NCBI GenBank assembly: GCA_050575255.1
Contig: JBNZDD010013687.1
Span: forward strand, 4,760,082-4,824,081
Direction of reading: 5' to 3'
Source of the DNA: Harriotta raleighana
Lineage: Eukaryota
DNA: 64,000 nucleotides
Part shown: positions 6,470 through 8,421 of the stretch, in pieces
Numbering within the stretch: position 1 is the stretch's first letter
How the letters are laid out: the number at the start of each line of letters is the position of its first letter
Translations under genes and position numbers: made by a program
The notes under the pieces: generated by a model
What the model saw: the letters and a program-made list of their open reading frames with translations, nothing else
Database searches by the model: none
Told to the model about the DNA's origin: nothing

Positions 6470-6790
6470 GGAGTCTTGTAGCTCAGTAGTTAGCGAGCAC
6501 TTGCTTTGCAAGTGAGAAACCTGGGTTTGATTCTTAGCAGGGTGAAAGATTGGGCAAGTTTCCTTACTCCATAAACCTAATAATAATCCCTTAAAAAACA
6601 ATAATAAATTGATCATTTCAATCCGCGACTGTTTTTGGGGCACTGATTTGCACAATTGGCTACCGCTTTTTGCCCTCAAAAATACAGTCAATTCACTTTA
6701 CAGTAAAGTACTGTGAACTGTGTACTGTGAAGCACTTTGAGACATCTAGAAGACATGATAAGGTGCTATATCAAGTGCTGGGTTAATCAT
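6470..6790 (+). mobile_element. Full-length tRNA-derived SINE
   Basis: Pol III A box (TAGCTCAGTAG) and B-box-like GGTTTGATTC, conserved body, LINE-like tail; several paralogous copies in the window. Confidence 0.88.
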
Positions 6791-7269: not shown

Positions 7270-7443
7270 GCTTCTCCTTTGGCAATGAAACCTTGCCTGC
7301 AGGATACACTGAAGCAGATTCAGGACCACCTCGACTAACTGCTGAGGAACAAGAATTGGCCAATTTAACTGCTATGCACATTGATTCAGAAACTACCAGC
7401 CTCAACCTGCAGGCGATTTCTGGTGACACTGTTACAATCACAG
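7270..7443 (+). CDS. RALGAPA1: RALGAPA1 exon
   Basis: tgcag|; (S)FSFGNET..AEEQELANLTAMHIDSETTSLN..TIT; G|gtgggt; phase 1-1. Confidence 0.92.
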
Positions 7444-7489
7444 GTGGGTATGTCTACTGTGCTTGCCAGCGCAATCTTATGTGCTGCAG

Positions 7490-7648
7490 ATGGAGAGCTT
7501 CGCTTTCAGCAGCTCTCCTGCGAGACCTTTCGCCTGGTCCGGTGCTGCAGGCGGTGGACCATCTCGTCGCGGGAGATCCCGACAGCGATTGAGCTGCTGC
7601 TACCAGGCGACATGCCGTGTCGGAGGTATCAGGGCCATCACCGAGTCC
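7490..7648 (+). pseudogene. Decayed histone H2B-like fragment (C-terminal half of the histone fold)
   Basis: Reads MESF / FQQLSCETFRLVRCCRRWTISSREIPTAIELLLPG / HAVSE / IRAITE across small frameshifting deletions. Canonical H2B reads MNSF..[51 protein letters not shown]. Confidence 0.8.
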
Positions 7649-7764
7649 CCTGGTCACCAGCTGAGGAGCTGGTCGGTTTTTGGGCCTTTCACTTCACTGG
7701 GCCTGGTTCCCGCCTTTTTTAATATCATCCAGACGGATGGCGAGGACAGACAGCAGTTGCTGGA

Positions 7765-8120
7765 CTGTTGTTAATTGCTGTTGTTGCTTCTGCTGTTGTT
7801 GTTGCTTTTTGTTTGTTTATTGTTGTTGATATTGTTGTTTGTTGTTGTTGTTCTCCCCCTGCCCCCTGACCTTTCCGCCTTTTTCTTCTTCTCTCCCTCT
7901 CTTACTCCCTTCCCTTCCTCTTCCCTCTTGCCCCCCTTTCTCCCAGATTTTCCCCTTTCCCTCCCTCTTCTCCCTTGCTCCCCTTTCTCCCCCCTTTTCC
8001 TCCCTGATTTCCCCCTTGCCCCCCTTTCTTCCCCTTTTCCTCTCTGATTTTACCTCACCGCACCTTTCACTCCGTCTCTCCCCTTACCCTCTTTTCCCCC
8101 TTTGCCCAGCCCCACTTCCG
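7765..8120. repeat. (TTG)n-like low-complexity stretch followed by a ~270-nt near-pure polypyrimidine tract
   Basis: Directly visible base composition. Confidence 0.9.
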
Positions 8121-8199
8121 CGACTGTTTTTGAGACACTACTCTATTGTGTGCAATTTGGCTGACGCGTTTCGCCCACAATAAAAGTGAATTTTTCCTA

Positions 8200-8320
8200 C
8201 TTTCATTCCCCCAACCCCTCCCCCTCGCTCTAATCCCCACTTGATTATACAGCTCCTTGGGACGTCCTTCCAACGTGAAAGGCGTTATATGAATGTAATT
8301 TTGATTGATTGATTGATTGA
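8200..8320 (+). mobile_element. LINE2-type 3' end with (TTGA)n terminus
   Basis: ccttgggacgtccttccaacgtgaaaggcgttatatgaatgtaattttgattgattg, the same tail as the L2 fragments at 17395 and 57345. Confidence 0.82.
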
Positions 8321-8421
8321 TGTGTTCTCAAGAACATAATTTGGTAAGCTCTGCTCAATTTTTCTATTCTAGAGGATGTGGCAGTTACTTCTCACTACAA
8401 TAAGTTTTGTATTGGAAATTA

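Follow-up and report, generated by a model that had tools for sequence, protein, structure and literature searches.

Several described systems share part of the organization of the element reported here. In Callorhinchus milii, CmiSINE/SacSINE1-CM, taken together with L2-2_CM, is likewise non-autonomous, has a LINE-derived tail and exchanges modules; it carries tRNA heads and Pol III boxes and exceeds 100,000 copies, whereas the present element has a head made from protein-coding genes and hundreds of copies (PMC5499810). A SINE-body piece is common to both, and a minority of the element copies end in the host SINE-type tail. The main text of that paper makes no mention of H2B, and its L2-2_CM is compared here by description only. 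SVA and LAVA are also composite and non-autonomous, with a variable low-complexity middle and lineage-specific subfamilies (PMC5174737). The element differs from them by its two host coding regions and by an end made of a stem-loop and a microsatellite tail. SVA and LAVA are built from repeat fragments and are moved by L1 through poly(A).

Chimeras of mRNA and LINE-1 such as RAP1GDS1-L1PA2 come close in another respect, as pieces of first-exon mRNA are fused in sense orientation with the 3' part of a LINE; template switching or ligation has been invoked for their formation, and promoter co-option has been proposed (10.1101/2025.02.02.635956). Chimeras of this type amount to two independent insertions, four with duplication (10.1101/2025.02.02.635956), whereas the element has more than 400 copies, successive masters and two captured genes. 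Bipartite non-autonomous LINEs and SINEs with GC-rich heads share with it a LINE tail, likely Pol II transcription and a template-switch model, but at the 5' side they carry LINE sequence or sequence without a known source (PMC5786205); the 5' part of the element is traced to H2B and RUNDC1. Finally, H2B variant sequence has been moved by retroposition in the case of H2B.K and H2B.N; these are individual copies of intron-containing genes (PMC8857922), and the parent of the element is another variant. No histone- or RUNDC1-derived retroposon was found in the literature, with subscription journals, Repbase, Dfam and the supplement of PMC5499810 lying outside the scope of that search.

The copy under study lies in the window, a stretch of 64,000 nucleotides of Harriotta raleighana DNA. 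It is inserted in sense orientation into an intron of a RalGAP alpha-like gene, approximately 40 nt past the donor at 7443/7444; a downstream exon at 9953-10138 matches RALGAPA2 in PDB 9qwp (E 3e-21). Its features are as follows.

7270..7443, + strand: host exon of the RalGAP alpha-like gene, upstream of the insertion, with AG/GT borders
7479..7483, + strand: tentative left copy of a candidate 5-nt target-site duplication (identical five letters at 8320-8324; the length equals the cross-pair background, mean 4.7)
7484..7504, + strand: 5' junction of this truncated copy, probably decayed, its exact border inferred (onset of family similarity at 7503-7543; read depth rises in bin 7488-7548)
7505..7662, + strand: segment derived from an H2B variant, covering the histone from halfway through its fold to the C-terminus, with frameshifts; assigned to the young subfamily (sequence comparison)
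7663..7770, + strand: segment derived from the first exon of RUNDC1, internally deleted, comprising ~7663-7712 and a stub at 7724-7770 (DNA alignment to the RUNDC1-rich copy L115)
7765..7850, + strand: (GTT)n-like tract, common to the family (sequence)
7852..8116, + strand: polypyrimidine tract, of variable length between copies (sequence)
8117..8192, + strand: SINE-body piece, occurring singly or as a tandem pair in the family (alignment with the SINE at window 6622-6693)
8207..8300, + strand: 3' tail derived from a LINE and predicted to form a stem-loop (93 of 117 columns shared with the 3' end of L167, a LINE copy that encodes RT)
8301..8319, + strand: terminal (TTGA)n microsatellite (sequence)

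The first-pass annotation had described a unit at 7455-8320; family similarity begins at ~7484-7505 rather than at 7455. The peptides, deletions, (GTT)n and polypyrimidine tracts, SINE piece and tail that it had named are found where it placed them, all on the + strand, and three frames yield the peptides; its inventory of modules had overlooked the RUNDC1-derived segment. It had also recognized the C-terminal half of H2B. This match is real and extends further upstream than the peptide then noted, to ~7505. In particular, window 7492-7611 matches solved H2B chains at E ~1e-5 (178 sequences at E up to 10). A Pfam search with the H2B piece of the window alone returned no match, and a BLASTP query with the 19-residue RUNDC1 stub alone was similarly negative; longer copies of the family pass the Pfam Histone cut-off (E 1.5e-12 for L046, 4.7e-7 for L055). 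The H2B segment has its best local score against the young subfamily (185, as compared with 155 for the middle subfamily and 106 for the parent). It shows a 1-nt loss that is family-wide and a 10-nt loss evident against the young majority. The 5' junction is spanned without a difference by two contigs of public DNA runs and is thus not an assembly artefact. Among the joints listed from these runs none skips the whole unit, but the runs carry the same allele, so that the comparison is not one between species. A SINE at window 6470-6780 (+), whose head looks tRNA-like by eye, shares with the element the piece at 8117-8192; its tail is of the type found on a minority of the element copies, and the SINE resembles CmiSINE as described in PMC5499810.

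The window copy belongs to a dispersed family. A genome search with 7455-7780 gave 1578 candidates, and among the 40 that were scored the 39 other than the window copy are 80-84% identical to it and lie on many contigs. The unit recurs whole, from H2B to tail: 21 of the 29 other loci fetched are colinear with the window through the same tail, and four of the 29 have a second, SINE-type tail. A 25-nt pattern over the internal junction, with up to two mismatches allowed, matches 405 times in the genome and the control not at all. This pattern recovers 40 of 55 known copies, which would correspond to ~560 copies if the rate holds, an estimate that leaves out the shorter ones. In 40 loci picked among the first 100 junction matches listed, the stub was present in 35, the SINE piece in 36 and the tail in 33, and the 5' extent ranged from 39 to 413 nt in the 36 that could be measured. 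The tail went undetected in the other seven of these loci and in 12 of the 55 copies; the SINE-type tail is carried by six of the 55 copies and by four of the 40 loci. Raw-read depth (run X5) is 46-219 over the two coding modules vs. 0-3 in the flanks. The multiple dispersed copies sharing the H2B-to-tail linkage that the first-pass annotation had proposed to look for do exist, and of its two readings, the histone-carrying non-autonomous retroposon family stands, while a single retrocopy of an H2B variant is rejected. Several loci have two or three junction motifs within 300 nt (G000:C13635 at ~183.7-184.0 kb, C13657 at ~611.5 kb, C13666 at ~3182.6 kb and C13670 at ~1413.2 kb), which might be internal tandem duplications or rearranged copies.

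The family has the traits of a non-autonomous non-LTR retroposon: its copies are dispersed, share one 3' end, are truncated to different extents on the 5' side and encode no RT. Constant 3' ends combined with ragged 5' ends are what target-primed reverse transcription leaves behind. As had been noted for the window copy, no clear target-site duplication is found; over 21 full-length copies the mean length is 4.9, vs. 4.7 for cross-pairs, and none rises above background. In L2 elements, target-site duplications are usually short or absent.

Full-length copies open with an AA(A/G)ATGGCG motif (24 of 55 copies; the regular expression for heads makes some false calls, ~3 in 12 among the junction-picked loci). 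Mammalian L1 5'UTRs are CpG islands and begin with a YY1 site (PMC5381506), which the terminal motif of the element resembles. In longer copies, H2B sequence runs from the basic N-terminal region to the C-terminus, i.e., over most of the H2B coding region. It is followed in older copies by approximately 70 codons matching RUNDC1, of which the window copy retains two remnants. The identity of this second module is given by 273 matches among 296 candidates, the best being that of C. milii at 80%, and old copies match C. milii RUNDC1 residues 17-111. The RUNDC1 piece thus stops before the next exon, at ~128, and contains no spliced junction, so that capture through RNA is unproven. Searches for a Pol III head found no B box in four of four full-length heads and one weak A-like match, and an Rfam search of four element loci returned no match. 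As regards classification, the element works like a SINE or an SVA-type composite; it has the tail of a LINE of the same genome, yet its head is H2B rather than a small Pol III RNA. Nested subfamilies with shared diagnostic changes, fusion to RUNDC1 and a LINE tail set it apart from processed pseudogenes of H2B, and its 5' 400 nt, leaving aside the terminal 10 nt, trace to H2B, not to a LINE 5' end as in a bipartite non-autonomous LINE.

Over 117 columns, the tail has 93 (79%) in common with the 3' end of L167, an RT-encoding LINE of the same genome. This LINE partner carries RVT_1 (E 5e-10) and has 6991 first-look candidates in the genome. A 15-pair consensus hairpin is predicted over 12 tails, with two-sided changes in three pairs and a small covariation term (-0.32). 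The tail is nearly constant between subfamilies (two positions changed), while the 5' modules drift. The partner likely belongs to the L2 clade, given RVT_1, a C-terminal motif, the SINE/L2-2 pairing in a related species and a TGTAA end. A TGTAA end has been noted for UnaL2 (PMC3747384). On the sense strand of this LINE, in L167 and in the other copies L157-L166, A is scarce and C abundant (18% A and 40% C in L167), the reverse of what mammalian L1 shows.

The parent of the histone module is a holocephalan H2B variant that is intact in Callorhinchus milii ('late histone H2B.L4-like', XP_042202152 and XP_042202158), and related H2B variants exist in sharks. The old copy L046 is 84% identical to these C. 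milii proteins and 72% to canonical H2B. The intact parent gene that had been predicted is therefore known from C. milii and not from the assembly searched, in which queries with the N-terminal tail and with the 3' region of L066 gave only L066 beyond element stubs. A Pfam Histone search there had 54 matches among 122 candidates, namely canonical genes, the variant L043, the broken L051 and element copies. L043 was rejected as parent by the tree and by comparison, and so was H2B.K, as the best matches are the C. milii late H2B.L4-like proteins and the H2B.K-like L051 falls outside the clade. The histone stem-loop is present in L039 and L043 and was not found in L042, L066 and the element loci L001, L002 and L046. 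L051 (G000:C13502:95500-99500, -) is an intron-containing H2B, presumably H2B.K-like by its intron, with in-frame stops and a frameshift in the assembly; loss of the variant and an assembly error are both possible. At L043/L044 (G000:C13217), one H2B variant is intact, and its long 3' region, rich in pyrimidines, leads up to a stem-loop-like motif; a frameshifted duplicate lies next to it. For RUNDC1, exons in the assembly are 72-97% identical to those of Callorhinchus milii, which points to another holocephalan as the host; the first exon was not found, and there is a 1.5-kb gap in the region expected. L115, tried as host RUNDC1 exon, proved to be an element copy. The C. milii proteins accordingly stand in for both parents.

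A tree of 64 sequences and 246 columns takes the form of a ladder leading from host genes through L066 and old copies to a middle star and a young star, with bootstraps of 100 for the elements plus L066, 100 for middle plus young, and 99 for young. The window copy was left out of the tree and was placed by its best score against the young majority. The 1-nt loss occurs in 45 of 53 scored sequences, those of the middle and young subfamilies, and the other eight are five host genes and three old copies. The first-pass annotation had supposed that the parent was already divergent. The parent was indeed a variant, and the young majority differs from the parent yardstick by 26 amino-acid and 2 silent changes; sequence comparison places most of the divergence from H2B after capture, in the master lineage. 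Indels common to several copies break the frame and, in 17 of the 23 young copies that could be classified, the fold, and the histone piece is therefore not maintained as a protein. Judged by sequence, it is decayed body rather than working cargo, and the earlier term 'cargo', for a frame broken by indels common to many copies, was an overstatement. CpG retention is confirmed, with an observed/expected ratio of 0.78 in 7503-7665 vs. ~0.2-0.4 in most nearby 1-kb bins. Its reason is a CpG-rich master, not a recent insertion, the number of CpGs increasing along the lineage from 24 in the parent yardstick to 28 in the middle and 32 in the young subfamily.

Copies diverge from their subfamily majority by ~8-10%, and by 5.4% (young) or 7.3% (middle) without CpG. 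Among 67 copies, from which the near-identical duplicates L012, L089 and L090 had been dropped, the best pair is 92% and the median pair 81% identical, and no recent copies are seen. At the rate of about 1e-3 per site per Myr given in PMC5499810, the copies might be ~50-100 Myr old, an age that is very uncertain. The family is likely to be extinct now.

Intermediates of its assembly are preserved, in the form of RUNDC1-only, long and short H2B-RUNDC1 and tail-swapped versions and a second H2B fusion. At L146/L128 and at L129, RUNDC1 codons take the place of H2B upstream of the junction. L129 has the full spacer, the SINE piece and the tail, and is the only one of the two that shows the tail. 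These versions suggest that RUNDC1 was captured before H2B; alternatively, homology may have guided later switches back to RUNDC1 mRNA. At L066/L127 (G000:C13655, ~141.4-142.4 kb), a single broken parent-type H2B with a Gly/Arg tail and its own 3' region is fused to a young 3' half. It is likely an independent second capture, which suggests that joins between H2B and the element recurred. Beside the H2B-less copy, L129:1453-1512 is an inverted RUNDC1-like fragment inside a LINE 3' fragment. In L046 (G000:C13676, ~111.2 kb), a second AAAATGGCGG-type head follows the RUNDC1 piece and is preceded by a splice-donor-like GTGAGT.

The window copy is very probably a 5'-truncated member of a composite, likely extinct family, likely copied as one RNA by the tail-recognizing RT of a LINE that is itself likely L2. 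A 5' piece of RUNDC1 mRNA would first have been joined to a SINE/LINE 3' end, and a template switch would then have placed H2B-variant mRNA over RUNDC1 codons 1 to ~27. Template switching has been described as an origin of chimeras (PMC5786205; 10.1101/2025.02.02.635956). Successive masters would have lost the histone start, most of RUNDC1 and the reading frame, and gained CpGs and the terminal YY1-like motif. The transcript was most likely a Pol II product of ~1.1 kb that began within the CpG-rich 5' end of the element itself and was reverse-transcribed in trans by the tail-donor LINE. The histone sequence would likely serve as a CpG-rich internal Pol II promoter or as body, as in the L1 5'UTR, rather than as cargo coding for a protein. 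LINEs of this kind are known to recognize their tails stringently and are not expected to copy ordinary mRNAs (PMC3747384). The family illustrates a way around this stringency, in which coding sequence is joined to the tail.

Other accounts of the unit have been considered. That it is a single H2B pseudogene into which SINE and LINE pieces were inserted later and independently might be suggested by the lack of a clear target-site duplication at its borders, but the same order of modules at dozens of unlinked loci, together with the 405 junction matches, refutes this account, whose probability is negligible. It is improbable, though less remote, that the copies are independent retrocopies of one host H2B-RUNDC1 chimeric transcript, made at a fixed locus from an outside promoter and not self-propagating. 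The RAP1GDS1-L1PA2 source gene does drive retrocopies from a co-opted promoter (10.1101/2025.02.02.635956), star-like subfamilies fit a few sources, and a ladder would be expected, too, from one source locus that evolves. Nevertheless, no source locus with unique upstream sequence has been seen, the full-length copies have their 5' terminal motif in common, and the existence of two tails, several young deletion classes and H2B-less versions points to several masters.

Very unlikely, too, is the idea that the element was retained because it encodes a histone-like protein, a true cargo aiding the host or the spread of the element. In some young copies, L002 among them, a new in-frame ATG does lie upstream of the fold and opens a frame of ~90 residues, and L055 still passes Pfam Histone. 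The excess of amino-acid over silent differences, the loss of the histone start and tail, the 1-nt loss in the 45 middle and young sequences and the shared fold-breaking indels all argue against it, as does a database search with the young frame that retrieved no protein relatives, a weak test since it was word-limited. For the young subfamily, this idea is already largely refuted. A composite, probably trans-mobilized family in which pieces of ordinary genes have likely been turned into the body of a mobile element accounts best for these data.

Both parents are conserved genes, so that every change in the master lineage can be polarized. SINE bodies whose source is not known seldom permit this; here it exposes a strong A>G bias of the sense strand. 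Among 36 backbone changes, 21 are A>G and 3 T>C (p=0.006, with 15 indel-rich columns masked), whereas private changes are symmetric (41:45; Fisher p=4e-4 for backbone vs. private). A first count of 25:5 was inflated by CpG decay in six old copies and has been replaced. RUNDC1 remnants show 6 A>G and no T>C, some columns being poorly aligned, and the core and tail have no A>G lean. The ratio of 21:3 does not agree with GC-biased conversion, which would act on both strands alike. By 5' neighbor, A>G changes follow the order T>A>C>G (3/3, 8/11, 6/20 and 4/15), which resembles the neighbor preference of ADAR. The planned context test, of 5' G against the others, was not significant (p=0.21), while a post hoc contrast of T/A vs. 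C/G neighbors gave p=0.003.

Editing, RT bias and selection for A-poor RNA may each be a cause of this bias. Whether it was produced by selection favoring RNA that is poor in A and rich in CpG, or by biased errors of the LINE RT, rather than by A-to-I editing, is an evenly balanced question: the element (11-17% A) and the sense strand of the partner LINE (18% A) are both A-poor, five more backbone changes are transversions away from A (three to T, two to C) and the planned test was not significant, but the ADAR-like neighbor order and the post hoc contrast speak for editing. A more speculative and rather doubtful extension is that of a SINE-like element with a head entirely made of recycled mRNA, in which serial template switching onto a stringent L2 tail took up RUNDC1 and then the histone, the latter becoming a CpG-island, YY1-type internal Pol II promoter through A-to-I editing of the master RNA that reverse transcription fixed at each round; the family would then be a dated fossil record of germline RNA editing. 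The family in any case makes it testable whether editing, RT errors or selection shape retroposon masters. Retroposition would also imply germline expression of a chondrichthyan H2B variant, and hundreds of copies are open to mis-annotation as H2B or RUNDC1 pseudogenes. Elsewhere in the window, 49001-52000 forms an island high in GC (up to 0.60) and rich in CpG (o/e 0.5-0.95 through 53000), which is probably a promoter region.
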